DNA of 58,232 nucleotides from Clostridiales bacterium (GCA_015056005.1 SVHB01000005.1:1-58232); one strand, 5' to 3'. Counted from the stretch's first letter, positions 3,360 through 16,112 are shown. The notes: generated from the letters alone by a model not told the origin. Program-made: numbers and translations.

Positions 3360-3510
3360 TTGGGAGAAGGCTTTGCCTTCTCCCAAAGATTTTTCTTCCC
3401 CTGGAAGATAGATTTTAGTCTTCAATCATTTACGTGGAAGAAGGTGTTGCCTTCTCCCACACCCTCATCCACCAAGGGTCTGCAACCCTTGGAACCCGCG
3501 GCTTTGGGAC
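3360..3510. repeat. Dispersed palindromic (REP-like) repeat unit, copy 1
   Basis: Perfect 12-bp hairpin 3360-3386; 3471-3502 matches 32475-32506 at 28/32 nt. Confidence 0.75.
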
Positions 3511-3787
3511 TGAGTAATTTCATACATATGCTTACGCGTGACCCGTAAAGTATGGGTCACGCGTGATTGTTTTTTAGGAGAGTCAGGCTTTAGGGTAGTT
3601 ACTAACTAAAACATGCTTACAGCGCATATTTCACGTACCGCAGGGACATTTACCCTTCACGCGGCGAAAGCCGCATTTCACTGCGTTCGTACCCCGCAAG
3701 AACGCAATTTTCTCTTGAACCTGTCGGTTACTTTTGCTATAATTGAATCACAAATGAAAAAGCAAATACAAAAGGAGCTGAAAAGGA

Positions 3788-4669
3788 ATGAAGTTTTCCG
3801 TTTACTCTGTCGGCATGCCCGAATTTGACATCAAGGAATCCGTTGCGATAGCCAAGAAATACGGCTACGACGGTATTGAATGGCGCGTCGCCCCCATTCC
3901 CGAAAAGGAACCCGAGAGCTATCCCTTTGAGCGCCGCTATTGGGCTTGGAACAAATCCACTCTCGATGAGAAAAATATAATCGAAGATGCACAAAAAGCA
4001 AAGGCTTACTGCGACGAAGCAGGGCTTGAGATATACGGTCTTGCCACCGCCCTTGGCGTATATCAGACCGAGCTGGTCACCGATGCCATCATCGCTGCAG
4101 GCAAGATCGGCTGCCCCATCATCCGCGCAGGTCTTGTCAGCTACGATCCCTACAAGGCAGAAAAGCCCTATAATGAGCTTGTTAAGGACACCAAGGCTAA
4201 GCTTCTGGAATACCTGCCCCTGCTCAAGGAAAACAATGTAAAGATCGTTCTTGAAACGCATCACGGCACCATGATCGCAAGCGCAAGCGCCGCTTACCGC
4301 GTGCTGGAAGGCCTTGACCCCACCTACTACGGCGTCATCTTCGATCCCGGCAACATGGTCGGCGAAGGCTATGAGGATTACAGAAAAGGCTTTGACATTC
4401 TCGGTCCCTATCTTGCCCATGTGCACATCAAGAACTCCGCTCTTGAATATGCAGGCGAGGACGAGCTCGGCTCCGCGATCTACAGGAGTGTTCAGAAGCC
4501 TCTCAACAAGGGTGCGGCAGATCTCAAAAAGCTGTTCGTCGCGCTCAACTCCGTAGGCTACGAAGGCGTTGTCTCAACAGAAGACTTCTCCAACGACGTT
4601 TCCACCGAAGAAAAGCTCGCCTTCAACATCGAATATCTCAAGAAGCTTTACGAAGCCGCAAAGAAATAA
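3788..4669 (+). CDS. Sugar phosphate isomerase/epimerase (xylose isomerase-like TIM barrel)
   Basis: GYDGIEW, LETH, FDPGN, HVHIK and STE metal-ligand pattern. Confidence 0.85.
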   Translation: MKFSVYSVGMPEFDIKESVAIAKKYGYDGIEWRVAPIPEKEPESYPFERRYWAWNKSTLDEKNIIEDAQKAKAYCDEAGLEIYGLATALGVYQTELVTDAIIAAGKIGCPIIRAGLVSYDPYKAEKPYNELVKDTKAKLLEYLPLLKENNVKIVLETHHGTMIASASAAYRVLEGLDPTYYGVIFDPGNMVGEGYEDYRKGFDILGPYLAHVHIKNSALEYAGEDELGSAIYRSVQKPLNKGAADLKKLFVALNSVGYEGVVSTEDFSNDVSTEEKLAFNIEYLKKLYEAAKK

Positions 4670-4684
4670 GTAATATCAATTTAT

Positions 4685-4712
4685 GGGGCAGAATTTTCTG
4701 CCCCTACTTTTT
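4685..4712 (+). terminator. Probable intrinsic terminator
   Basis: GGGGCAGAA/TTCTGCCCC hairpin followed by a T-run. Confidence 0.6.
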
Positions 4713-4726
4713 AGCAGGAGACTTAT

Positions 4727-5527
4727 ATGCCATTAAAATGGAGAGAAAACATCAGGGAAACCGATGTTAACACAATACTTTTGCTTGATGATTTGCATTT
4801 CAGCTATCTTAAGCTTGACGGAATAAACAAAAACCTTGCTCATATCATCAATCATTACCCCTACATCGGCTGGTTTATCAAAAACAAACTTCCCGACTAC
4901 AGCGACTGGGTCGACAGCATGATCGAATATGCAAAAAACGTGCCCGAGCCTTCCAATATGAATACCGTTATCGGTGACTTTTTTGAAAACATATTTGACT
5001 GGGTGATTTATGTTACCGATCCAAACGATTACCATAAGCTTTCGTTTGTCGGCTGGGATGAAGAAGAAATGCTTTGTCTTACCGATTTTTCAGACAAGGT
5101 CGTTGTGGATATAGGCTCCGGCACAGGCAAGCAGGCTTTTGCCGCAGCAAAAACCGCCAAAACCGTGTATTGCGTAGAACCTGTATGGAATCTAAGGCAA
5201 TACCTCAAAAAGCGTGCAAAGGCAGAAAATCACGACAATATTTACGTGGTTGACGGTACGGTAACCGAATTGCCCTATGCGGACGCATTTGCCGATATAG
5301 TGACCTCAGGTCATGTTGTCGGCGATGATATTGACGCAGAGATCAAAGAGATGGAACGCATAACAAAAAAAGGCGGCATGGTGATCATGTGCCCCGGCAA
5401 CGACGATTCCGATAATTCATTTCATAAACAGATAATTTCCCACGGCTATTCATGGGACAGATTCCTTGAACCCGGAAACGACGACGGTTCCGGCTGGAAA
5501 CGCAAATATTGGAAGATAATCGAATAA
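4727..5527 (+). CDS. Class I SAM-dependent methyltransferase
   Basis: VVDIGSGTG motif I, then CVEP, ADIV and KKGG. Confidence 0.85.
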   Translation: MPLKWRENIRETDVNTILLLDDLHFSYLKLDGINKNLAHIINHYPYIGWFIKNKLPDYSDWVDSMIEYAKNVPEPSNMNTVIGDFFENIFDWVIYVTDPNDYHKLSFVGWDEEEMLCLTDFSDKVVVDIGSGTGKQAFAAAKTAKTVYCVEPVWNLRQYLKKRAKAENHDNIYVVDGTVTELPYADAFADIVTSGHVVGDDIDAEIKEMERITKKGGMVIMCPGNDDSDNSFHKQIISHGYSWDRFLEPGNDDGSGWKRKYWKIIE

Positions 5528-5548
5528 GTGCATCAAAACAAAAACAAA

Positions 5549-5574
5549 AAAGCTTCCGAAAATTCGGAAGCTTT
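5549..5574. terminator. Bidirectional terminator
   Basis: AAAGCTTCCGA-N4-TCGGAAGCTTT between convergent genes. Confidence 0.75.
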
Positions 5575-5588
5575 ATTGTTAAGAAGAA

Positions 5589-6239
5589 TTACTTCTTCAT
5601 CTGACCCATAACTTCTTCAACGAAGTTGTCTTCGCGCTTCTGGAGGCCTTCGCCCATTTCGAAGCGGACGAAACGACGGATGGTGATCTTTTCGCCGATG
5701 GTGGCAACAGACTCGGTAACGAGCTGGGAGATGGTCTTGTCAGTGTCCTTAACGAACAGCTGGTCAAGCAGGCAGTTGTCGGTGTAGAACTTCTTGATGC
5801 GGCCTTCAACCATCTTTTCGACGATCTTTTCGGGCTTGCCTTCGTTCAGAGCCTGAGCGCGGAGGATTTCCTTTTCCTTCTCGAGGATCTCAGCGGGAAC
5901 TTCTTCGGCGTTGAGGTAGGTGGGCTTCGCAGCAGCGATGTGCATAGCGATGTCGTGTACCAGAGCCTTGAACTGTTCGGTCTTTGCAACGAAGTCGGTC
6001 TCGCAGTTAACTTCGACCATAACGCCGATCTTGCCACCCATGTGGATGTAGCTGTCTACGATACCTTCGGCAGCGATCCTGCCGGCCTTCTTGGCGGCGG
6101 AAGCGAGGCCCTTTTCACGGAGCAGTTCAGCGGCGCGCTCCATATCGCCGTCGGTCTCAACGAGAGCCTTTTTGCAATCCATCATGCCAACGCCGGTGCG
6201 CTCGCGAAGGATCTTGACGTCTGCAGCAGAAATAGCCAT
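5589..6239 (-). CDS. tsf: Elongation factor Ts (short form)
   Basis: [16 protein letters not shown] and EVNCETDFV motifs; start at ATG 6239 behind GGAGG. Confidence 0.97.
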
Positions 6240-6260
6240 TGCATTTTCCTCCAATAAAAA

Positions 6261-7019
<759 letters not shown>

Positions 7020-7029
7020 GAAAAATTTC

Positions 7030-7141
7030 CTCCTTAATTCCTCCCCGCGCATAAAGTTTTTCCGTAAATGTTCAGGAGACGGATTTACGCGGGTGCGTTT
7101 TGCAACTTGTTTATTATAACACGTTTTTTTGCCCCATGCAA
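7030..7141 (-). promoter_or_regulatory. rpsB promoter and structured 5' leader
   Basis: TTGCAT(7141-7136)-17-TATAAT(7118-7113) with extended TG; leader has nested pairings such as TCCGT/ACGGA. Confidence 0.6.
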
Positions 7142-7187
7142 CAGGGAAATCGTTATTTTCAGCCATATTTTCAATATTTTATTTGCA

Positions 7188-7216
7188 TTGAAGAGGTCTG
7201 TTTACTGTGATATAAT
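7188..7216 (+). promoter_or_regulatory. sigmaA-type promoter of the alpha-xylosidase gene
   Basis: TTGAAG-17-TATAAT with extended TG. Confidence 0.6.
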
Positions 7217-7249
7217 GATACGGTAAATAAACACAAGAGGATAATACAT

Positions 7250-9514
7250 ATGAAATTTACAGACGGATTCTGGAAATTGAAGCCGGGAGTATCAATGATA
7301 CCCGTAATGGAAGTCAAGGACAAGTTTTTTGACGGGAAGACCCTTACCGTTTTTTGCTCCGATGTATTGCACGCAGGCAGGGCCCAAGCGGTCGACCGCC
7401 CAATGATCACGATAGAGTTCTCCGCTCCAAGAGAAGATGTTATCGGAGTAAAGCTTATCCATCACGACGGAAGCACAAAAAAGCTCCCCGCATTCGATAT
7501 TTTCGAAGATGAAAATGCGCCCGAATTCTTTGAAGACGACGCTTCCATCGTTTTTTGCAGCGGAGCTACGAAGGTCATAATAACCAAAAGCCCTTATTCG
7601 CTCGCTTTTTATAAGGGCGAAAGACTTCTGACCAAGAGCTTGAACAAATGCGCTTCCTATATGAAGACAGACATCGGTCCCTTCATGCGCGAGCAGCTCA
7701 CCCTTGACGTGGGTGAATGTGTCTACGGGCTTGGAGAAAGGTTCACACCCTTTGTCAAAAACGGACAGGTCGTGGATATGTGGAACGAGGACGGCGGCAC
7801 CGCCTCCGAGATATCCTATAAAAACATTCCCTTCTATGTTACCAACCGCGGTGTAGGCGTTTTTGTCAACACTCCCGCGCCGGTCAGCTTTGAGGTAGCC
7901 TCCGAGGTCGTTTCCCGCGTTCAGATGAGCCTTGCGGGCGAAAAACTGCAGTATTATGTTATCGGCGGAGACGATATAAAAGAAGTCATCTCCAATTTCT
8001 GCTCTCTTACGGGAAAGCCCGCCCTGCCCCCTGCATGGTCTTTCGGGCTTTGGCTCACCACGTCGTTTACCACCGATTACGACGAAAAAACGGTCAGCAG
8101 CTTTATCGACGGAATGGCTCAAAGGGATATCCCCCTTCGCGTTTTCCATTTCGACTGCTATTGGATGAAGGAATACGAGTGGTGCAATTTTACTTGGGAT
8201 GAACGTGTTTTCCCGGACCCCACAGAGATGCTCAGGCGCTATCACGAAAAAGGGCTCAAGATCTGCTGCTGGATAAACCCCTATATCGCCCAGAAATCTC
8301 CGCTTTTCAAGGAAGGCAGGGATAACGGTTATCTCTTAAAGCGCGCAAACGGCGATGTCTGGCAGTGGGATATGTGGCAGGCGGGCATGGGTCTTGTTGA
8401 TTTCACCAATCCGGATGCGACAAAATGGTATCTTTCCAAGCTCGAAGCACTCCTTGATATGGGCGTTGACTGCTTCAAGACCGATTTTGGAGAGAGGATC
8501 CCCACCGACGTTGTTTATTTCGACGGCTCCGATCCCGTTTACATGCACAATTATTATACCCACCTTTACAACAAAGCAGTATTTGATCTGCTGGAAAGTA
8601 AGCTGGGCAAAAATGAAGCCTGTCTTTTCGCCCGCAGCGCTACCGCCGGCGGCCAGAGGTACCCAGTACACTGGGGCGGCGATTGCGTGAGCGAATATTA
8701 CTCAATGGCAGAGAGCCTCAGAGCCGGTCTTTCCCTCACCTCAAGCGGCTTTGCCTTCTGGAGCCATGATATCTCCGGCTTTGAAAATACCGCTACTCCC
8801 GATCTTTACAAGCGCTGGGCTGCGTTCGGTCTGCTTTCCACCCACAGCAGGCTGCACGGCAGCAAATCCTACCGCGTCCCGTGGCTCTTTGACGACGAAG
8901 CCTGCGATGTGGTCAAATTCTTTACCAACCTCAAATGCCGCCTTATGCCCTATATCTACGCAATGGCGGTCAATGCATCAAAAACCGGCGTTCCTGTCAT
9001 GCGCTCTATGGCTATGGAATTTTTCTCAGATCCCGCCTGCGACAGCCTTGACAGGCAGTATATGCTGGGCGACAACATCCTTGTTGCTCCCGTTTTCAGC
9101 GAGAATAAGACAGCGCAGTGGTATCTGCCCGACGGCACCTGGACTCACCTTCTCTCCCAAAAAAGCTATAAAGGCGGCAGATGGTATAAGGAAGAATTCG
9201 ATTACTTCTCCCTGCCCCTGTTTGCAAGAGAAAATTCGATAATCGTTACGGGTTACTGCGATACCCTGCCCGACTATGACTATACCTTCCTTCCCACCGC
9301 GACCTTATACGAGCTAAACGATAAGGCATCAAGCGAAGTTTACGATATAGACGGCAAGCTCAAGCAGCGCATAGATGCAAAAAGAGAAGGAAGCCGCATC
9401 AATATCAGCCTGCTTTCACCTGCAAAGGGAATGAAGATCGAAATAAAAGCAGGAGATATTTCAAAAACCGTGCAGATCGCAGACGACAGGCTTACACTCA
9501 CGATAGATATATAG
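7250..9514 (+). CDS. yicI: Alpha-xylosidase, GH31
   Basis: MKFTDGFW start; FHFDCYWM, nucleophile KTDFGERIP and acid/base HWGGD motifs. Confidence 0.95.
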   Translation: MKFTDGFWKLKPGVSMIPVMEVKDKFFDGKTLTVFCSDVLHAGRAQAVDRPMITIEFSAPREDVIGVKLIHHDGSTKKLPAFDIFEDENAPEFFEDDASIVFCSGATKVIITKSPYSLAFYKGERLLTKSLNKCASYMKTDIGPFMREQLTLDVGECVYGLGERFTPFVKNGQVVDMWNEDGGTASEISYKNIPFYVTNRGVGVFVNTPAPVSFEVASEVVSRVQMSLAGEKLQYYVIGGDDIKEVISNFCSLTGKPALPPAWSFGLWLTTSFTTDYDEKTVSSFIDGMAQRDIPLRVFHFDCYWMKEYEWCNFTWDERVFPDPTEMLRRYHEKGLKICCWINPYIAQKSPLFKEGRDNGYLLKRANGDVWQWDMWQAGMGLVDFTNPDATKWYLSKLEALLDMGVDCFKTDFGERIPTDVVYFDGSDPVYMHNYYTHLYNKAVFDLLESKLGKNEACLFARSATAGGQRYPVHWGGDCVSEYYSMAESLRAGLSLTSSGFAFWSHDISGFENTATPDLYKRWAAFGLLSTHSRLHGSKSYRVPWLFDDEACDVVKFFTNLKCRLMPYIYAMAVNASKTGVPVMRSMAMEFFSDPACDSLDRQYMLGDNILVAPVFSENKTAQWYLPDGTWTHLLSQKSYKGGRWYKEEFDYFSLPLFARENSIIVTGYCDTLPDYDYTFLPTATLYELNDKASSEVYDIDGKLKQRIDAKREGSRINISLLSPAKGMKIEIKAGDISKTVQIADDRLTLTIDI

Positions 9515-9526
9515 GAGGATATATAA

Positions 9527-10216
9527 ATGGAACTTACAAACAAAGTGACCGCTTTTATGAAGGAGATCGGCGCCGATCTGGTCGGTATTGGTGATGTTGA
9601 AGGGATCGCTCCCGAAGGATTCAGGCGCGCCGTGGTCTGCGCCGTTGCCGTCCCGCTTGATATCGTACGCAAGATTCCCGAAGGCCCCACTCCCGATTAT
9701 CCCGAAAAATACGAAACTATGAACAAATATATGGATATGATAGCCGTAAAGGGCGCGGAGTTCATCAACTCTCTTGGCTATCGTTCTATTCCCCTTGTTG
9801 GCTCAAATGTCAAGATCAACAGAGAAAAAATGATGAGCGAATTCCCCTATAAGACCGCCGCCACAAGAGCAGGCCTTGGCTGGATCGGCAAAAACGACCT
9901 TCTCATTACTCCTCAGTTTGGTCCCGGAATCAGGCTCACTGTCGTCCTCACCGACGCGCCCCTTAAAGCCGCAGTGCCTGTAAACGAATCCGGCTGCGGC
10001 AGCTGCAGCGCATGCGTTGACATTTGCCCCGGAAAAGCCATATCCGGCAAGCTCTGGTACGCGGGCATCAATCGCGAAGAGCTTGTAAACATAGAATTGT
10101 GCATGAAGGGCGCGGCGCAGGTTGCCGAAAAGACACTCGGCAAGCCCTCAGGCCTTTGCGGAAAATGCTTCGCAGTCTGCCCCTATACTCAAAAATACTT
10201 AAACAGCGCCAAATAG
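9527..10216 (+). CDS. QueG-like (epoxyqueuosine reductase family) 4Fe-4S protein
   Basis: KTAATRAGLGWIGKN.L, CGSCSACVDICP and CGKCFAVCP. Confidence 0.8.
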   Translation: MELTNKVTAFMKEIGADLVGIGDVEGIAPEGFRRAVVCAVAVPLDIVRKIPEGPTPDYPEKYETMNKYMDMIAVKGAEFINSLGYRSIPLVGSNVKINREKMMSEFPYKTAATRAGLGWIGKNDLLITPQFGPGIRLTVVLTDAPLKAAVPVNESGCGSCSACVDICPGKAISGKLWYAGINREELVNIELCMKGAAQVAEKTLGKPSGLCGKCFAVCPYTQKYLNSAK

Positions 10217-10217
10217 T

Positions 10218-10257
10218 AAAAAAAGCTTGAGCGGATAAGTACGGTGTCCATAAAACA
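10218..10257 (+). repeat. Left terminal inverted repeat
   Basis: AAAAAAAGCTTGAGCGGATAAGTACGGTGTCCATAAAACA. Confidence 0.88.
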
Positions 10258-10375
10258 GTAAATATTATCGTGTCCAAACACGACTTCAAGTTATATACTT
10301 GGAGTCATGTTTTTGCTTTTACAGAAAGGGAATCTTTCATGAACAGAGAAAGATTTTTGAAAAACAGGAGGTTTT

Positions 10376-10663
10376 ATGAGAACAGGACTTACCAAGAGAG
10401 AAAAGACCACTGCAATCTATTTTGACGCGTACGGCAGCACGATCGATGTGCAGACCCATAACACCGATCTGAAAAAGCGGCTGACCGCATTTACAAAAGA
10501 ATACCCCCAATGCTGCCGCCTGATTGACGATGACGAGCAAGGCGGACTGACCTTTGAGATCGAAAAAGGCAGATTGAGTTTCCAGCTGACTTCGCCGTAC
10601 AGCGAGGATCGGAAAAAGGCGGCAAGTGAGTGGGCGAAGATGCATGGAATTAGCCAAAAATGA
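10376..10663 (+). CDS. Small hypothetical protein of a type I recall from Clostridia mobile elements
   Basis: 95-aa ORF behind AGGAGG, first gene inside the left repeat; no functional motif recognised. Confidence 0.7.
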   Translation: MRTGLTKREKTTAIYFDAYGSTIDVQTHNTDLKKRLTAFTKEYPQCCRLIDDDEQGGLTFEIEKGRLSFQLTSPYSEDRKKAASEWAKMHGISQK

Positions 10664-10682
10664 CGAACAGTGGTGGCGTTGG

Positions 10683-10711
10683 TTGAAAAATTCACATTAT
10701 ATTCGTATAAT
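10683..10711 (+). promoter_or_regulatory. sigmaA-type promoter of the nuclease gene
   Basis: TTGAAA-17-TATAAT; GAGGAGG RBS at 10729-10735. Confidence 0.7.
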
Positions 10712-10744
10712 ATGTATAAAAATCTGTAGAGGAGGCTGTACGAA

Positions 10745-11638
10745 GTGAAAGAGCGTAAAATCACGAATGAAATGTTAGATGCCTTTTTGCATGGAGAACT
10801 TCATCCGCTCTTAGAGGCTGTTAAGAAAGATGACACATTAGATTTAGAACTTCGTGGAAACTCTGTTAACATTTATTACAGAGGCGGAAGCCTATTTAAG
10901 ATCACGGAGAAAAAAGGAAATTATACAGTATTCTTCAACAAGAAATATTGTATGACCGACAACTCTGTTCTTGAAGAGTACCCTGATGTCAAATCAGCTG
11001 TTGATAACATTCCTTTTTATAAACAGGCGATGGATTGGTGGTTCCATGAGCACCCCAAATATGAAAGAGAGTTTCAGCAAGTCATTGCCCGTGAAAACAA
11101 CAACCTCGGAAATATTTCCAGAGGAACTGACTACTATATTGTGGATATAGAGTATGCCAACAAAGTCGATGTTGCTGACAAATCAGCACGATTCGATATG
11201 GTAGCTCTAAAGTGGCTCTCTGATGGAGCAACTCGAAAAGATGTCAAAAAGGTATCACTGGCTCTTGTTGAAGTAAAGTTTGGTAACGGCGCATTGCAGG
11301 GCAAAGCTGGCGTTAGCGATCATCTTAAAGATTTCCAGCGTTTTCTGTCCGATCAAAATTTCTTCAAAGAGTTTTGTGAAGATATGTCTGTCGTATTTGC
11401 TCAAAAGTGCCAATTAGGTCTGGTGGATGGATTGCAGAAAAAACAGTTTGAAGTGAAAATCAGCTGTGAAAATCCGGAAGTCATTTTCGTGTTTGCCAAC
11501 CATGATCCCGATAGCAAAATACTTGATAATATTTTGCTATGCAATGAACTTAAAACTTGTTCATTCCCCGTACTGATTGCCAATGCATCGAGCATGGGAT
11601 ACTGCCTCTATGCTGATCAGCTTACGAAAATAAATTAA
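10745..11638 (+). CDS. Putative PD-(D/E)XK nuclease-fold protein
   Basis: GTG start; EREFQQ helix, then IVDIEY, RFDMVAL and LVEVKFG in nuclease motif order. Confidence 0.65.
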   Translation: MKERKITNEMLDAFLHGELHPLLEAVKKDDTLDLELRGNSVNIYYRGGSLFKITEKKGNYTVFFNKKYCMTDNSVLEEYPDVKSAVDNIPFYKQAMDWWFHEHPKYEREFQQVIARENNNLGNISRGTDYYIVDIEYANKVDVADKSARFDMVALKWLSDGATRKDVKKVSLALVEVKFGNGALQGKAGVSDHLKDFQRFLSDQNFFKEFCEDMSVVFAQKCQLGLVDGLQKKQFEVKISCENPEVIFVFANHDPDSKILDNILLCNELKTCSFPVLIANASSMGYCLYADQLTKIN

Positions 11639-11718
11639 AAGTTTTTTAACCCTACCACCCTGTTGTCGTGGCGGTTTGCTATACTGTTTGCAAACGAACA
11701 CAACAGGAGGATTTTCTC

Positions 11719-12042
11719 ATGAATAACCAAGGTGAGAACCGCAGCAAAACAGGCGACGATCTTGTTTGTCCAAACTGCGGTGGTCATCAAGTGCGATGGG
11801 TTCCCTATCCCAAGATCGAGTTCGGCTCGATGTTTATTCTTTGGCTCATTATTTCTTTGATAACGGTCAAGGGTACGATCATCGTATTTGTCGCAGGCGC
11901 AGTTTATTGGAGCATAGCATTGGTAATTCGTCTGAAGCAAAACAGCCGTGCAAACCTTGTGAATCGGATGCACTGCGACACTTGCGGCGTAAATTTTGAA
12001 GTGGATAAGAATATTTTTTCGGAAGGAGGTCAGAAGAAATGA
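11719..12042 (+). CDS. Small membrane protein with a split zinc ribbon (LITAF-like layout)
   Basis: ATG 11719 behind AGGAGG; CPNC, two hydrophobic helices, then CDTC. Confidence 0.75.
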   Translation: MNNQGENRSKTGDDLVCPNCGGHQVRWVPYPKIEFGSMFILWLIISLITVKGTIIVFVAGAVYWSIALVIRLKQNSRANLVNRMHCDTCGVNFEVDKNIFSEGGQKK

Positions 12043-12647
12043 GGGGAGAACATCGCATTATTACATTTGGCTTGACGGATGAACAAAACGAAATCGTCAA
12101 AGCCAATATTCCGGCGAGAGATTACGAGGTGTTTGATACCGATGCCCCAACCGATATCATTGCCATAGGAAGTATTGCAACGGTCATTCAGGCATCTGAA
12201 CTGGATGAAGATTCTGTTGGTATGCTGTTTGACTATTACACGCAGATCAACGGCTGCACAGATGAAACAGTTATTTGGCTCGGTGATCCAAAGCCTCCGA
12301 AGGAACTCCAAAAATTCTTCAGGTGCTATCCTTCCTTTGCTGACATTGAGGATAAGCTGAAATATCTTCTTGTGAACGCACATTCCAAAAGCAAGAAAGC
12401 GGCGGACTACAGTGAGAAACTGGTAAATGGACTTTTGATTCTGTCAATCATTCGTAAGAAACCGGGTGTCACGACAAAAGAACTTTCGGAAAAAGTCAGC
12501 TTACCTATCCGCAGCGTTCAACGGTATATTGCGGCATTACAGGCTACCGGAGAATGGCTTGAGTATGACAGAACCCTGAAAGGATGGAAGCTGTCTTATG
12601 GCGTTTCCATGCTGTTCGGGGATGTATGGGACGGTGAAATCAAATGA
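12039..12647 (+). CDS. Protein with an alpha/beta (pseudo-receiver-like) N-domain and a C-terminal winged HTH
   Basis: VTTKELSEKVSLPIRSVQRYIAAL HTH with wing LEYDRTLKGWKL; ATGA overlap with the upstream gene. Confidence 0.75.
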   Translation: MRGEHRIITFGLTDEQNEIVKANIPARDYEVFDTDAPTDIIAIGSIATVIQASELDEDSVGMLFDYYTQINGCTDETVIWLGDPKPPKELQKFFRCYPSFADIEDKLKYLLVNAHSKSKKAADYSEKLVNGLLILSIIRKKPGVTTKELSEKVSLPIRSVQRYIAALQATGEWLEYDRTLKGWKLSYGVSMLFGDVWDGEIK

Positions 12648-13825
12648 AAACCATCATACACCGTGGAACTCACCAGATCGGTGGCATCGCTACTGAGATT
12701 CGCACAGAGAATACCCGTATACTCATTGATATGGGTGACGAGCTATCACTTGATCCCGATTTCGTTTCTTCGCCGTTGAATATTCCCGGTGTAACTGATG
12801 CCAACGGAATATGTGATGCCGTCTTCTTCACTCATTACCACGGTGATCACACCGGGCAGATGACACGAATCAGAGATGACATCCCCCTTTACACAGGTGC
12901 TCTTGCAAAAGAGATCATGCAGCTGTCGGCAGAACGCAGTTACCACAAAAATCAGGTCCTTTGTGATAGAATCAAGACGCTCCACACATTCAACGGCGGC
13001 GAAGAATTGATAATCGGTGACATCCGTATCACACCTTGGTCCATCGACCACTCAGCCTGTGACAGTTATCTGTTTCTGATCGAAGCAGATGGCAAGCGCG
13101 TTCTATATACCGGGGATTTTCGGATGCACGGATTTAGAGGCAAGGTTCTGCCGAAGATCCTTCATAAAATCGGAAAGGTTGATGTTCTGGTTACCGAAGG
13201 CACAACCTTGTCCCGACCGGACGAGAAGCCGATGACGGAGCGAGAGCTGCAGCAAAAAGTCAGAGAGTACATGACGCAGTACAAGTATGTTTATGTCATG
13301 TGCGCCTCCACCAATTTGGAGCGTATTTGCGCGCTGTCGAAGGCTGTTCCCAGAGGAAAGTATTTCATTTGCGACGGTTATCAGAAAGCCTTGATGGAGC
13401 TTGTGGAACATCACTGGGGAACGCTGTCGCCGTTATATCGTGATTTGAAGAAAACAGTCTACGGGGACAATATTTTCGAAGCGATGAAAGAACGGGGCTT
13501 CCTAATGACGGTGCGGGACAATCGAGATTTTAGAAATATCATCAGCAAATTTGACAGAGAGAAAAGCATCATGCTGTACTCCATGTGGGACGGCTATCGC
13601 ACGAAACCTGGCAGCACAATCCCTGAATTTTTGAATCTTACCGGTCGTTGGGAACCGCTGCATACCAGCGGTCACGCATCGCACAGTGATCTGAAAAAGG
13701 TAGTTGATATTGCAAACCCGGAGATGGTCGTTCCGATGCACAACGATAATCCCGATATGCTGCAGATACTTTGTCCAGATACAAAAATTAAACTTGTAAA
13801 TGACGGAGAGGAGGTTACGCTATGA
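12644..13825 (+). CDS. RNase J-like metallo-beta-lactamase/beta-CASP nuclease
   Basis: QIGG, IDMG, THYHGDH, DHS, YTGDFR, TEGT, HTSGH and VPMH motifs all present. Confidence 0.9.
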   Translation: MKTIIHRGTHQIGGIATEIRTENTRILIDMGDELSLDPDFVSSPLNIPGVTDANGICDAVFFTHYHGDHTGQMTRIRDDIPLYTGALAKEIMQLSAERSYHKNQVLCDRIKTLHTFNGGEELIIGDIRITPWSIDHSACDSYLFLIEADGKRVLYTGDFRMHGFRGKVLPKILHKIGKVDVLVTEGTTLSRPDEKPMTERELQQKVREYMTQYKYVYVMCASTNLERICALSKAVPRGKYFICDGYQKALMELVEHHWGTLSPLYRDLKKTVYGDNIFEAMKERGFLMTVRDNRDFRNIISKFDREKSIMLYSMWDGYRTKPGSTIPEFLNLTGRWEPLHTSGHASHSDLKKVVDIANPEMVVPMHNDNPDMLQILCPDTKIKLVNDGEEVTL

Positions 13826-14823
13826 TAAAAAACCAGATTCTTTGCCTTGGTCTAAGTCGTGTCGAACTGCAGACACTTTATATCCGCTTCCCAATTCTTT
13901 ATCAGTTCTATCAGGTGCAGAGTGAAGATTTTGACGACATTCAGAAGATCAAAATGATGGTCAGCGAGTCGGTATGTCTCTTTATCAATCCGAAGAAGTT
14001 GAATGGACTGCAACTGAACGACTTGCTTCGGGAGCATAAATATGCAGCGGCGCATACTCACACTTCTGTTCTGTTGTTTACTTCTGCATTTACAAAGGAG
14101 CAGCGCTATGAGGTGGACACGGAAGCTCTCCATCGGGTTGATCTTAAGGCCAGATTTGACAAGACTCTTCGGGACGCTGTGGAATTCATTCGCAAAGCCT
14201 CTATGCCCTGTTGGGATGGATTGAAGCGTATGGAAGGAAATATGTTCAATGATGGTTGGTATTTGCTTGACTTAACCTCTACCGGCCTTGATCCCACATC
14301 TGATGAAGTGATTGCCATCACGATTGCTTTTATGGGTCAGTACGAATTACGAGAAAAAGAGACGATATACATCAAACCTTCTCGCCCGCTGACAGCAGAT
14401 GACGAAGCTATTACCGGTATCACAAACGAGATGCTGGAAAATGGAATGAGCAAGGAAGATGCCGTGTCTTATCTGGATAATCTTCCGCATCCTTCACCTT
14501 TTATCATAGAGACGGAAAAATACGATTATCCGGCCTTGAAGGCACTGTACCATTTCTGCGGAAAGAAATTCGATCATCCTTATATTGCAATTGATGGACT
14601 TGCCGCCATTGCTTTCGGGTACAAATTGCTCAGACGGAGCAGCGATTTGGTGAAAGCGGTATCAGACAAGATGCAGCTATATATTCCGGAAGAAGAAAGA
14701 TATATCGCTGAGCTTTACGCGTTGACGCTTGCGGTATTTGAAAACCTGAGAGACCGATATGATGTTCGATGCCCCGGACAGTTTAAGTCACTCTACTTTG
14801 GCGAAACCCATTGTTGCGACTAA
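13822..14823 (+). CDS. Alpha/beta N-domain fused to a degenerate DnaQ/DEDD exonuclease domain
   Basis: LLDLTSTGLDPTSDEVIAI, IKPSRPL..ITGITNEML and IDGL; ExoI Glu and ExoIII His/Asp not seen. Confidence 0.75.
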   Translation: MIKNQILCLGLSRVELQTLYIRFPILYQFYQVQSEDFDDIQKIKMMVSESVCLFINPKKLNGLQLNDLLREHKYAAAHTHTSVLLFTSAFTKEQRYEVDTEALHRVDLKARFDKTLRDAVEFIRKASMPCWDGLKRMEGNMFNDGWYLLDLTSTGLDPTSDEVIAITIAFMGQYELREKETIYIKPSRPLTADDEAITGITNEMLENGMSKEDAVSYLDNLPHPSPFIIETEKYDYPALKALYHFCGKKFDHPYIAIDGLAAIAFGYKLLRRSSDLVKAVSDKMQLYIPEEERYIAELYALTLAVFENLRDRYDVRCPGQFKSLYFGETHCCD

Positions 14824-14840
14824 CAAGAATAATCCCTTTG

Positions 14841-14966
14841 AAACAAGGGGCGCACTTCTATACAGGGGCAAGCGCTGTATGTGCGCTCTGCAAGGCAGAC
14901 AGCCCGGACGATTGAAGGCTGGCTGTTTTGCATCACTTTGTTCCAAACAAGGGGCTGTACCCCTTG
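14841..14966 (+). other. Putative MOBQ (MobA/MobL)-type origin of transfer
   Basis: Nested inverted repeat GCGCAC..ATACAG/CTGTAT-GTGCGC followed by TCT, resembling the TAAGTGCGCCCT nic motif; second hairpin CAAGGGG/CCCCTTG at 14948-14966. Confidence 0.6.
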
Positions 14967-15030
14967 CGCCGCTGTGCGGCTATCCTAAAAAGGAAAACCT
15001 CTGCATGAATGACTCATGCAGAGGTTTAAG

Positions 15031-15070
15031 TGTTTTATGGCCACCCACCTTATCCGTTCAAGCTTTTTTT
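15031..15070 (-). repeat. Right terminal inverted repeat
   Basis: Reverse complement AAAAAAAGCTTGAACGGATAAGGTGGGTGGCCATAAAACA. Confidence 0.88.
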
Positions 15071-15084
15071 ATAGTATCGTAATC

Positions 15085-15612
15085 TTATTCGGGCTTTTGC
15101 TGTTGACCTTTCCAATCTTTATCAAGAAGACCGTAAAAATGCAAATCAGCCGGGCTGCCGTATTCGTCCTTAGACGCATTGGGCTCTATACATTCAAAAC
15201 GCATACCCAGTTTTTTCATCAGCCCCACCGACTTCACAGTGTCGATCGTTTCTGAAAACACCTTATGGGCGCTTAGCTCAGAAAAAGCATAGTCGATCAC
15301 AGCCTTTAAGGATTCATAGGCAAAGCCCTGTCCCCAGAAGCTGCGGTTAAATATCCAGCCCATTTCATACACGCCCTTTTCCTGCTCGTTGAACAGGATG
15401 TAGCCTATCACCTTTCCGCTTTCCTTATGAACTGCCGCAAAAGCTCCGCTGCGACCGATGCAGAAAGACGCCAGAAAATCCTTTGTTTTTTCGAAGCTGT
15501 ATGCAGGCTCGCAGTTTTTCATCGTCTCTGGGTCGCCCAAAATCTCATAGAGGTCCTGTGCATCCTCAGATATAAAATTGCGTATGATCATTCTCTGTGT
15601 TTCTGTGTACAT
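15085..15612 (-). CDS. GNAT acetyltransferase, RimJ/RimL-like
   Basis: ETQRMIIR, EMGW..WGQGFAYE and KKLGM. Confidence 0.88.
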   Translation of the reverse strand: MYTETQRMIIRNFISEDAQDLYEILGDPETMKNCEPAYSFEKTKDFLASFCIGRSGAFAAVHKESGKVIGYILFNEQEKGVYEMGWIFNRSFWGQGFAYESLKAVIDYAFSELSAHKVFSETIDTVKSVGLMKKLGMRFECIEPNASKDEYGSPADLHFYGLLDKDWKGQQQKPE

Positions 15613-15623
15613 CTTTATACCTC

Positions 15624-16112
15624 TTAATAATCAAACTCATGTTCAAAAACTTTGATCTTCTGCGTCAGCTTTTCGCCTTGGTACGGTTTGCGCACCTCGA
15701 TCAGATTCAAAACAGTATATCCGCGTTTGCGCAGGAATTCTATCATGCTGTGGTTGTTGGGATGAACATAGTTGTAAACGGTATCTTCGCCGTATAAAGC
15801 GGCTGTTTCTTCCGCCTTTTTGTAGAGAGCAGATGCAACACCGCGGCGGCGGTATTCCTCTTTGACAAAAACAGACTCCACCCACACAACTCCGCTGTCC
15901 ACCCGGCAAACCACATAGCCAGCGTATTCATCGTTTACAAGACAAACAAATACCGGAAATTTTGCTTCAAGGTATTCTTCTATTTCCTCCCTGCCTGTTT
16001 CAACGCTGGGTTTGGATATTATTCCTTTATATGAACGCAGCTCCACGCGAAACAGCGCAGCCATTTGTGCAAGCGCATCGTTTGCCTGCCTGACTTCCAA
16101 TACTTGCACCAA
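15624..16112 (-). CDS. GNAT acetyltransferase
   Basis: FVKEEYRRRGVASAL acetyl-CoA motif A; N..MIEF..RGY. Confidence 0.88.
   Translation of the reverse strand: MVQVLEVRQANDALAQMAALFRVELRSYKGIISKPSVETGREEIEEYLEAKFPVFVCLVNDEYAGYVVCRVDSGVVWVESVFVKEEYRRRGVASALYKKAEETAALYGEDTVYNYVHPNNHSMIEFLRKRGYTVLNLIEVRKPYQGEKLTQKIKVFEHEFDY

Follow-up and report, generated by a model that had tools for sequence, protein, structure and literature searches.

Between two convergent genes of a Clostridiales bacterium lies a block of DNA with the outward appearance of a transposon, long inverted repeats abutted by a short direct repeat, in which no mobility gene is found. We asked where this element ends, what it is related to, and what could move it. 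The window is the whole analyzed stretch of 58,232 nucleotides (GCA_015056005.1, SVHB01000005.1:1-58232), to which the coordinates of the locus refer. We consider it probable that the 4.8-kb interval between about 10237 and about 15051 is one of a family of integrative mobilizable elements (IMEs) of gut anaerobes, a member that is doubly non-autonomous and lies inside a host terminator hairpin. The element keeps both terminal arms, a 95-aa gene, cargo and an oriT-like region, and has lost the MobC-like, relaxase and recombinase genes.

A nuclease-rich gene cassette between inverted repeats

An earlier sequence-only reading had described a 40-bp inverted repeat ending in A7/T7 with ATAGT on both outer sides, and our analysis confirmed it. 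The 40-nt core (10218-10257 and 15031-15070), read from the sequence, pairs at 35 of 40 positions, with A7 at 10218-10224 and T7 at 15064-15070 forming its outer edges, and a repeat search extends the arms to 46 nt (10217-10262 and 15026-15071) at 85% complementarity. The first 22 nt of the repeat occur exactly twice in the window, against zero expected from 100 shuffles. Two further claims, that the interior holds no mobility gene and that its removal leaves the flanking genes about 10 bp apart, were also correct: the six internal ORFs of at least 95 aa gave no transposase, integrase or relaxase in Pfam, NCBIfam, PHROGs or PADLOC, and excising 10218-15075 on paper brings the stop codons of the two convergent flanking genes to a distance of 10 bp. 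The integrase and relaxase of its own that a strict definition of an IME demands are thus both absent, no tyrosine recombinase of the kind expected in a Tn916-type element is present among the internal ORFs, and tblastn with the relaxase of a related element (G023) gave no match in the window. The G+C content is 44.3% in the element versus 49.1% in the genome. The element carries the small conserved 95-aa gene and, as cargo, a five-gene nuclease-rich module, arranged as follows.

9527..10216, plus strand: left flanking host gene, a 4Fe-4S protein resembling QueG/RdhA, with profile matches (QueG 61 bits, RdhA 73 bits) below the curated family cut-offs
10213..10217, no strand: left ATAGT, holding the stop codon of the left flanking gene and read as host DNA
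10376..10663, plus strand: 95-aa gene, function not assigned, with homologues at 56-78% identity in IMEs bearing a large serine recombinase (LSR)
10745..11638, plus strand: 297-aa cargo protein with no family match; among its nearest Atlas clusters, those assigned to Pfam are PD-(D/E)xK nucleases, which is no more than a lead
11668..12042, plus strand: 124-aa zinc-ribbon protein, weak matches only
12039..12647, plus strand: 202-aa protein with a C-terminal winged helix-turn-helix
12644..13825, plus strand: 393-aa nuclease of the metallo-beta-lactamase (MBL) fold, beta-CASP type
13822..14823, plus strand: 333-aa protein with a C-terminal DEDDh (DnaQ-like) 3'-5' exonuclease domain
14827..14997, minus strand: oriT-like conserved non-coding region, homologous to the region upstream of the DUF3847 and MobA/MobL genes in full-length relatives
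15071..15075, no strand: right ATAGT, read as host DNA
15085..15612, minus strand: right flanking host gene, a GNAT acetyltransferase

The oriT-like region matches its relatives at 73-89% identity over most or all of its length, in matches longer than 100 nt. Read on the opposite strand, positions 14848-14857 give the core of the MOBQ oriT consensus quoted in passages of PMC3832669 and PMC10333310, and on these grounds we predict that the region acts as a transfer origin with a MOBQ-type nick motif.

The element probably ends inside the repeat

The inverted repeat is composite, its inner ~25 nt being an IME arm and its outer 18 nt most likely one half of a split host terminator, which places the true ends of the element near 10237 and 15051, about 18 nt inside the boundaries drawn before.

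10218..10235, no strand: left outer part of the repeat, A7 plus stem half, proposed host terminator half (attB left arm), 17/18 complementary to 15053-15070
10236..10237, no strand: proposed crossover dinucleotide TA of the left junction, placed to within ~2 nt
10238..10262, minus strand: left terminal arm (attP-type half-site), with the 17-nt core at 10243-10259, 19/25 complementary to 15026-15050
14995..15027, plus strand: perfect 14-bp hairpin with a 5-nt loop, on the inner side of the right arm
15026..15050, plus strand: right terminal arm (attP-type half-site), with the 17-nt family core at 15029-15045
15051..15052, no strand: proposed crossover dinucleotide TA of the right junction
15053..15070, no strand: right outer part of the repeat, stem half plus T7, proposed host terminator half (attB right arm)

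The arms were found by aligning the regions downstream of LSR genes. An inverted pair of the family core stands at the two ends of the element, as it does in the LSR-bearing IMEs typified by locus L049; the inner arms agree at 19 of 25 positions counted from the sequence and at 21 of 27 by a 27-nt slide. The outer edges of the repeat had been taken as the ends of the element, a placement at odds with related arms elsewhere, which lose similarity 4-6 nt past the 17-nt core. Three metagenome loci (L114, L082 and L091) are 95% identical across 3 kb inside the right arm and have zero similarity over 600 bp outside it, and five left-arm comparisons are equally sharp, with similarity beginning 4-6 nt outside the core. 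In a contig from run X17, the oriT region is joined to a right arm identical over 22 nt (15031-15052), after which the contig diverges into a different stem half, T7 and an unrelated flank; this is one contig, of depth ~2, with only those 22 nt on the arm side of the joint. An equivalent of the hairpin beside the right arm is present in relatives and skipped in the X17 copy. The proposed TA crossover would be a palindrome, and serine integrases seldom use one.

At the left end, alignment against the regions upstream of other copies of the small gene shows similarity starting only at 10336, leaving 10260-10335 without a relative in the data. No LSR-bearing element with arms identical to those of the 4.8-kb element was found, and a seed-and-extend search for long terminal inverted repeats in six metagenome loci returned nothing convincing.

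The search for partners sharing the full outer repeat, suggested by the sequence-only reading, found none. The 20-nt outer part has two matches in the source genome, both at the element itself, and one unrelated match in the collection of genomes of the species; among 400 genomes of the order, 18 others have a match, each time with 1-2 mismatches, a number close to that from a reversed-pattern control. A degenerate pattern of the inner repeat gave two matches in viral contigs, both to unrelated sequence, the whole element had zero matches to plasmids, and Rfam over 9500-15700 gave a single snoRNA match far under threshold.

The outer repeat halves resemble a split host terminator

Joining 10206-10237 to 15053-15090 yields a 19-bp hairpin between A7 and T7 with a folding energy of -26.5 kcal/mol. 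Eight sites reconstructed in this way average -14.9 kcal/mol, compared with -8.9 (sd 4.6) for 56 mismatched pairs of left and right flanks. Of 35 unique flanks, 27 have a run of at least four T starting 10-33 nt past the arm core, compared with 660 of 5000 random positions. What lies between arm and T-run is wholly different from one related element to the next, yet the two sides of a site agree. The hairpin is not rebuilt everywhere (-6.1 kcal/mol at L082 and -7.3 at G015), and at G015 and G016 no complementary terminator halves were found. With their A7 and T7, split stem halves would lengthen each arm by 18 nt, producing the apparent repeat of 40-46 nt.

If the outer parts are a split host terminator, ATAGT lies in host DNA and is probably a coincidence rather than a target duplication. 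The sequence-only reading predicts a single ATAGT junction in relatives lacking the cargo; among other arm pairs whose outer edges were read, L049 and L114 show no such direct repeat. For an exact 5/5 match right next to the repeat, chance gives ~1 in 1000 at each position; this counts against the composite repeat, as that interpretation must treat the match as coincidence.

No empty site of this insertion was found among 60 relatives, in which the flanking genes match different contigs or genomes at 66-71% identity, so the neighborhood is not conserved. Runs X5, X10, X17 and X18 contain no contig that joins across the element and no circle junction, an absence that is uninformative in contigs of such low depth. 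Since no insertion of the family that we examined has yielded an empty site, we infer the host origin of the outer halves from their pairing rather than see it in an uninterrupted terminator. A preference for terminator loops as landing sites is our own interpretation of these patterns.

Complete and reduced members of the family

A metagenome scan with the MBL protein gave 403 relatives, from which 80 loci were kept. Many of the contigs are incomplete, and as they stand the 124-aa, 202-aa, MBL and DEDDh genes occur together in 53 of 80 loci, the oriT-like region in 64, DUF3847 in 34, a relaxase in 27 and an LSR in 13. The full-length layout is left arm, variable cargo, oriT, DUF3847 MobC-like gene, MobA/MobL (MOBQ-type) relaxase, DUF4368 LSR and right arm. 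At L049, the element spans 9.9 kb between its arms (3471..13394 of that locus) and carries MobA_MobL (302 bits), DUF3847 and an LSR with Resolvase, Recombinase, Zn_ribbon_recom and DUF4368 domains.

The inverted pairs of the 17-nt core that surround both L049 and the 4.8-kb element also bound recombinase-less elements of ~6 kb (L082, L114) and ~3.1 kb (L048 and five further contigs, at one site). Smaller arm-bounded elements without a recombinase measure 2.9 kb (G016), 1.2 kb (contig C95 of the source genome) and 0.75 kb (G015). These forms of 0.75-6 kb come from other genomes, the source genome and metagenomes, and occupy different sites. L082 and L114 share their left flank but not their right, so a further rearrangement is needed in that pair.

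The source genome may contain pieces of helpers. Its contig C48 opens on the final 15 codons of an L049-type LSR gene, with a right arm behind them, and family arms lie on four more contigs, near a contig edge in C32, C53 and C83 and as the internal mini element in C95. In the assembled source genome, tblastn with the LSR, relaxase and DUF3847 protein of L049 gave no match with E <0.4, and no MobA/MobL-type relaxase was detected by tblastn (G023 and L049 relaxases) or as a PF03432 match. The sole LSR of the assembly, on C78, is of another type.

Mobilization in trans and alternative explanations

To move, the element would need a recombinase and also a relaxase provided in trans. It would sit in the loop of a bidirectional intrinsic terminator between the two convergent host genes until an LSR from a related element in the same cell paired both junctions and cut at the central dinucleotide, probably TA, releasing a circle. 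A MobA/MobL relaxase acting in trans would nick oriT, and a conjugative element's pore would export the strand, led by its cargo end. Once in the recipient, the circle would again need an LSR to insert it into another terminator-like site between an A-tract and a T-tract. The sequence-only reading had proposed a cassette moved in trans by an unidentified recombinase. The DNA is indeed foreign, its ends fit a recombinase acting in trans, and closely related recombinase-less copies occupy different contexts; the type of recombinase, however, can be named as an LSR. The comparison with Tn916, Tn3 and Tn7 ends was inapplicable. A Tn916-type element has a tyrosine integrase and excisionase, with coupling sequences at its ends; the ends here belong to the LSR family.

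The same repeats could instead delimit a transposon-like cassette, with 40-nt TIRs reaching to A7/T7, a transposase probably of the DDE type acting in trans and duplicating ATAGT, and an IME fragment (from the 95-aa gene to oriT) carried as passenger. Mobile insertion cassettes and Tn3-derived miniature elements do carry passengers between inverted repeats and, lacking a transposase, are moved in trans by DDE transposases with true target duplications; a 5-bp duplication with ends of ~40 bp is the Tn3-family format. The exact direct repeat directly outside a 35/40 inverted repeat fits this description, and in the X17 copy AGC and T7 precede the different flank, which would allow the T-run to be part of the element. 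We nonetheless find a transposon-like cassette unlikely. Its outer 20 nt recur nowhere beyond the control rate, no plasmid matches it, and the inner repeat half is an LSR-family arm whose boundaries fall 4-6 nt past the core. The segment from arm to T-run varies between elements and agrees between the two sides of a site, as a split host hairpin would give, and at L049 and L114 the A/T runs are not followed outward by a direct repeat. The empty site that the sequence-only reading implies folds at only -10.2 kcal/mol, with no hairpin centered between the stop codons. Unlike mobile insertion cassettes, the element has serine-recombinase arms, and its apparent duplication would lie outside it. 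For a derivative of the Tn3 family or of another DDE element, no transposase-bearing partner sharing the repeats was found in the source genome, the genomes of the order and species, or plasmids; the family ends ~18 nt inside the repeats, and ATAGT does stand on both sides.

Decay in place offers another account, in which this site received a complete IME whose MobC-like, relaxase and recombinase genes were later removed by an internal deletion, leaving it immobile. The architecture is that of a full-length relative minus the block between oriT and right arm, the runs examined yielded neither an excision product nor an empty site, and the assembled genome has no matching helper. Such a relic is distinctly unlikely, with both arms intact and the same junction of oriT and right arm recurring in X17 beside a different flank. 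Near-identical cargo is found in all four runs (X5, X10, X17, X18), three of which (X10, X17, X18) have no contig over the left flank of the element at 9308-10323, and three different right-hand contexts hold copies of the 6-kb recombinase-less type at 95% identity. Very improbable is a long host palindrome interrupted by foreign DNA through illegitimate recombination, the repeats not being recombination sites at all. The outer halves do resemble one host hairpin, but the inner 25 nt match an arm motif conserved in inverted pairs around many related elements, which chance or illegitimate joining would not reproduce.

Comparison with known elements

The non-autonomous IME that we favor is of a kind already known, an LSR IME reduced in the manner of CIMEs (cis-mobilizable elements) or iOriTs; CIMEs and the remnants of ICEs and IMEs are reportedly treated by Guedon et al. 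(2017, PMC5704250). Passages of PMC12084326 describe CIMEs as bounded by the attachment sites of integrative elements, devoid of recombination and transfer genes, and thought to derive by deletion. The 4.8-kb element likewise keeps both attachment junctions and has lost its recombination and transfer genes. CIMEs move in cis after adjacent integration of an incoming element, according to the same passages, whereas the 4.8-kb element also keeps an oriT, and the occurrence of the same cassette type alone at different sites suggests action in trans, unlike CIMEs. Its predicted oriT without relaxase or mating-pore genes matches the iOriTs (bioRxiv 10.64898/2026.01.13.699239), which in the portion of that study drawn on here are integrative and have defense-like genes beside oriT. 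That portion reports an integrase near 92% of att-delimited islands, serine recombinases in <1%, and sizes nearly always >4 kb; in contrast, the present family also includes forms without an integrase, has LSR-type arms, and extends down to 0.75 kb.

Full-length relatives resemble IME_Rho_tet-type elements as portrayed in parts of PMC12904643, with cargo, mobC-like gene, relaxase and LSR in the same order and gut hosts in animals and people. The short terminal inverted repeats, 21 bp in the LSR IMEs of gut Clostridia described there, are likened to ours by length, the published motif being given as a figure only. The 3' boundary lies ~78 bp past the recombinase stop codon in L049 versus 81-90 bp in the published elements (PMC12904643), and the G023 relative has a methyltransferase adjoining the small gene. 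The 4.8-kb element differs in having no relaxase, MobC-like gene or recombinase and in carrying nuclease cargo rather than tet genes, and it lies in a putative terminator, while 45% (116/256) of the published elements with a recreated site lie in MAFF2 ORFs (PMC12904643). DUF4368 LSRs form a multi-targeting, TndX-like clade according to PMC10083194, the text of which makes no mention of terminators, hairpins or palindromes. The L049 LSR carries DUF4368, and the family occupies many sites with A-rich and T-rich outer parts; unlike DUF4368 LSR systems, the 4.8-kb element encodes no LSR.

Implications for mobile elements of gut anaerobes

What looks like a textbook transposon, with its long inverted repeats and short direct repeat, may here be an artifact of LSR arms combined with split terminator halves, a caution for the delimitation of mobile elements in general. 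Beyond this locus, we tentatively sketch a wider picture that is possible though doubtful as a whole: a reduction series of hyper-parasitic cassettes of arms plus oriT from 9.9 kb (autonomous) through 6, 4.8, 3.1, 2.9 and 1.2 kb to 0.75 kb, MITE-like in character and needing a multi-targeting DUF4368 serine recombinase, a MobA/MobL relaxase and a conjugative pore, all three provided in trans, with family-wide targeting of bidirectional terminator loops, and with a five-gene nuclease cargo on the oriT side that enters the recipient first and represents an undescribed defense or counter-defense system. If this picture is true, mobilizable islands of gut anaerobes yield miniatures that retain only attachment arms and oriT, and detection tools keyed on integrase or relaxase genes would miss them. 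An LSR clade with a preference for terminator loops would have near-universal sites at which genes are left intact, which may be of interest for genome engineering, and the conserved nuclease module would be a candidate for a defense or counter-defense function adjoining the transfer origin.

Inverted repeat and enclosed genes

The sequence-only reading had described a cargo cassette bounded by 40-bp inverted repeats and an ATAGT direct repeat, with no mobility gene inside, and had proposed that it was moved in trans. The observation itself is confirmed, and its interpretation is partly supported. A repeat search placed the two arms (the terminal repeat halves) at 10217-10262 and 15026-15071, 46 nt with 85% complementarity; the first 22 nt of the repeat occur twice in the window, in both arms, where shuffles are expected to give none, and ATAGT is present at both outer sides. 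The features, in order along the window, are as follows.

Features of the element and its flanks
end at 10216, 4Fe-4S protein ORF of the left flank, converging with the GNAT ORF
10218-10224, A7 run, left outer side (read from the sequence)
10376-10663, plus strand, 95-aa ORF, no family
10745-11638, plus strand, 297-aa ORF, no family
11668-12042, plus strand, 124-aa ORF, zinc ribbon
12039-12647, plus strand, 202-aa ORF, winged helix-turn-helix (wHTH)
12644-13825, plus strand, 393-aa ORF, beta-CASP metallo-beta-lactamase-fold (MBL) nuclease
13822-14823, plus strand, 333-aa ORF, DEDDh exonuclease
15064-15070, T7 run, right outer side (read from the sequence)
end at 15085, minus strand, GNAT acetyltransferase ORF of the right flank, converging with the 4Fe-4S ORF

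None of the six plus-strand ORFs between the arms encodes a recombinase or relaxase. The G+C content of the element is 44.3%, versus 49.1% for the genome. Among Atlas clusters with a Pfam family, those nearest to the 297-aa protein are PD-(D/E)xK nucleases (score 0.88), which is no more than a lead. Over the cargo (10745-14823), PADLOC matches were limited to generic models of wHTH/CARF and DEDDh domains.

Relatives and a putative origin of transfer

In a DNA search of 60 relatives, two short segments turned up in many genomes, often in several copies each: the 95-aa gene and a non-coding stretch (about 14827-14997). In the complete relative genome G023, a homologue of the small gene (56% identity) is followed by genes for a methyltransferase and a DUF3847-like protein; the conserved non-coding stretch comes next, and after it genes for a MobA/VirD2-type relaxase, a primase-like protein and a large serine recombinase (LSR). 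Scanning metagenomes with the MBL protein as query gave 403 relatives, and 80 loci were retained. On these loci, many of whose contigs are cut short, the non-coding stretch directly follows the cargo genes in 64, and DUF3847, relaxase and LSR genes are found in 34, 27 and 13, respectively. The proteins of the 9.9-kb full-length relative L049 match MobA_MobL (302 bits), DUF3847, and Resolvase, Recombinase, Zn_ribbon_recom and DUF4368 together. The 124-aa, 202-aa, MBL and DEDDh genes co-occur in 53 of the 80 loci, in each case immediately ahead of the oriT-like region. The five-gene cargo, including the 297-aa gene, is a conserved module and a candidate defence or counter-defence system.

Read on the minus strand, 14848-14857 is identical to the core of the MOBQ oriT consensus given in PMC3832669 and PMC10333310; 50 of the 80 loci have this 10-mer unchanged and in the same orientation. 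Because of this motif and its position, we read the non-coding stretch as a putative oriT; nicking with the published polarity would send the cargo side first into the recipient.

In contigs from gut metagenomes, 10324-10577 (small gene) and 14642-15149 (oriT) reach summed depths of 70-200, and the cargo between them has a depth of 0-7 in every bin and run; the two modules are common to many different elements in those communities. In several relatives (L061, L111, L086 and L026) another gene and two copies of a short direct repeat precede the homologue of the 95-aa gene, and the element does not begin with this homologue; judged by eye, the translated 3' end of the preceding gene looks like an excisionase/MerR-type helix-turn-helix protein.

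Position of the element ends

The recombinase genes of L049 and of a second metagenome locus, L051, are followed by a sequence like the right repeat of the window, and three relative genomes (G015, G016 and G053) have the same end sequence directly after the oriT and hairpin. Arms were located with a 17-nt core from L049, allowing at most 4 mismatches with key positions fixed, and inverted pairs were found over a wide range of sizes.

Inverted pairs of the arm core, with folding energy of the reconstructed site
L049, 3471..13394, autonomous; -14.1 kcal/mol
window element, 10243-10259 (minus) and 15029-15045 (plus); -26.3 kcal/mol
L082, about 6 kb, cargo, oriT and DUF3847 only; -6.1 kcal/mol
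L114, about 6 kb, cargo, oriT and DUF3847 only; -24.7 kcal/mol
L048 and five more contigs with the same site, about 3.1 kb; -16.6 kcal/mol (L048)
G016, 2.9 kb; -13.2 kcal/mol
C95, contig of the source genome, 1.2 kb; -10.8 kcal/mol
G015, 0.75 kb; -7.3 kcal/mol

Three metagenome loci (L114, L082 and L091) have 95% identity along the 3 kb that ends 6 nt beyond the core, and none of the 600 bp after that is shared; the same sharp loss of similarity is seen in five left-arm comparisons. As a separate line of evidence, a single low-depth contig of sequencing run X17 joins the oriT region to the right arm with identity to the window over 15031-15052, and continues into a different GC-rich stretch, a T7 run and then an unrelated flank. 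Carried over from relatives, the boundaries would put the true ends at about 10237 and 15051, 18 nt further inside than the sequence-only reading had placed them.

L082 and L114 share their left flank (98% over 600 bp) and have unrelated right flanks, and the right flank of L114 recurs in L123 behind a partial recombinase gene; this mixture suggests recombination between copies or tandem arrays.

Origin of the outer repeat halves

The outer 18 nt on each side are complementary at 17 of 18 positions, with the A7 run and a stem half on the left and a stem half and the T7 run on the right. When the host sides are joined at the proposed crossover, the predicted fold is a 19-bp hairpin bounded by A7 and T7 (-26.5 kcal/mol), lying 1 nt past one stop codon and 14 nt short of the other, which has the form of a bidirectional intrinsic terminator. 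The empty site predicted by the sequence-only reading has no such hairpin between the genes (-10.2 kcal/mol). Eight paired sites were rebuilt alike and compared with 56 mismatched left/right pairs as a control, which averaged -8.9 kcal/mol (sd 4.6). One of the 56 mismatched pairs reached -27.4 kcal/mol; it is presumably L082-left with L114-right, really one site. A run of at least 4 T starting 10-33 nt past the core was present in 27 of 35 unique flanks, which include a few chance motif matches, versus 660 of 5000 random positions.

Since the outer halves rejoin as a hairpin and T runs are enriched beyond the core, we infer that the long inverted repeat is a composite of recombinase arms (19 of 25 positions complementary) and two halves of a host hairpin. 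ATAGT would therefore lie in host DNA, and we treat its occurrence on both sides as chance, with odds of roughly 1 in 1000, the main point against the composite reading. Neither L049 nor L114 has a direct repeat at the equivalent place.

Possible helpers in the source genome

The cargo is nearly unchanged in all four sequencing runs compared (X5, X10, X17 and X18), and X10, X17 and X18 have no contig for the left flank of the window (9308-10323). Protein and family searches of the assembled source genome found no MobA/MobL-type relaxase. Its only LSR, at the edge of contig C78, is a different one, with only 26.5% identity to the G023 recombinase; the 574-aa ORF (69-1790) is followed by housekeeping-looking genes and by no arm of the family. 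At the start of contig C48 stand the 15 final codons of an L049-type LSR gene and then a right arm, and C32 (end), C53 (start) and C83 (start) have family arms no more than a few hundred bases from their edges. Because arms occur on these contigs and on C95, mostly near contig edges, the family is multi-copy in this organism and seems to break its assembly; the genome thus holds pieces of possible helpers.

The pair on C95 (3855-5071) delimits a 1.2-kb mini element with an oriT-like motif, a hairpin, one minus-strand ORF and no mobility gene. The smallest member seen, in G015 (locus L024, reverse strand, 5633-6387), is gene-free and consists of two arms, an oriT-like region and a hairpin.

Comparison with known elements

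IME_Rho_tet elements are LSR-borne integrative mobilizable elements (IMEs) of gut Clostridia with terminal inverted repeats of about 21 bp (PMC12904643), and DUF4368 LSRs form a multi-targeting clade (PMC10083194). Remnants, CIMEs and relaxase-less IMEs have been reported in Faecalibacterium (PMC12084326). Elements with an oriT and no relaxase have been described as iOriTs, nearly always larger than 4 kb; an integrase lies near 92% of the att-delimited islands in that study, and serine recombinases account for less than 1% (bioRxiv 10.64898/2026.01.13.699239). The window element has neither integrase nor relaxase, its arms are of the LSR type and it is part of a series of elements whose sizes go down to 0.75 kb; we regard it as a variant of known element types. 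Our limited literature search found no statement of a preference for terminator loops. Taken together, the window element is probably a doubly non-autonomous derivative of an LSR-borne IME, inserted in a terminator.
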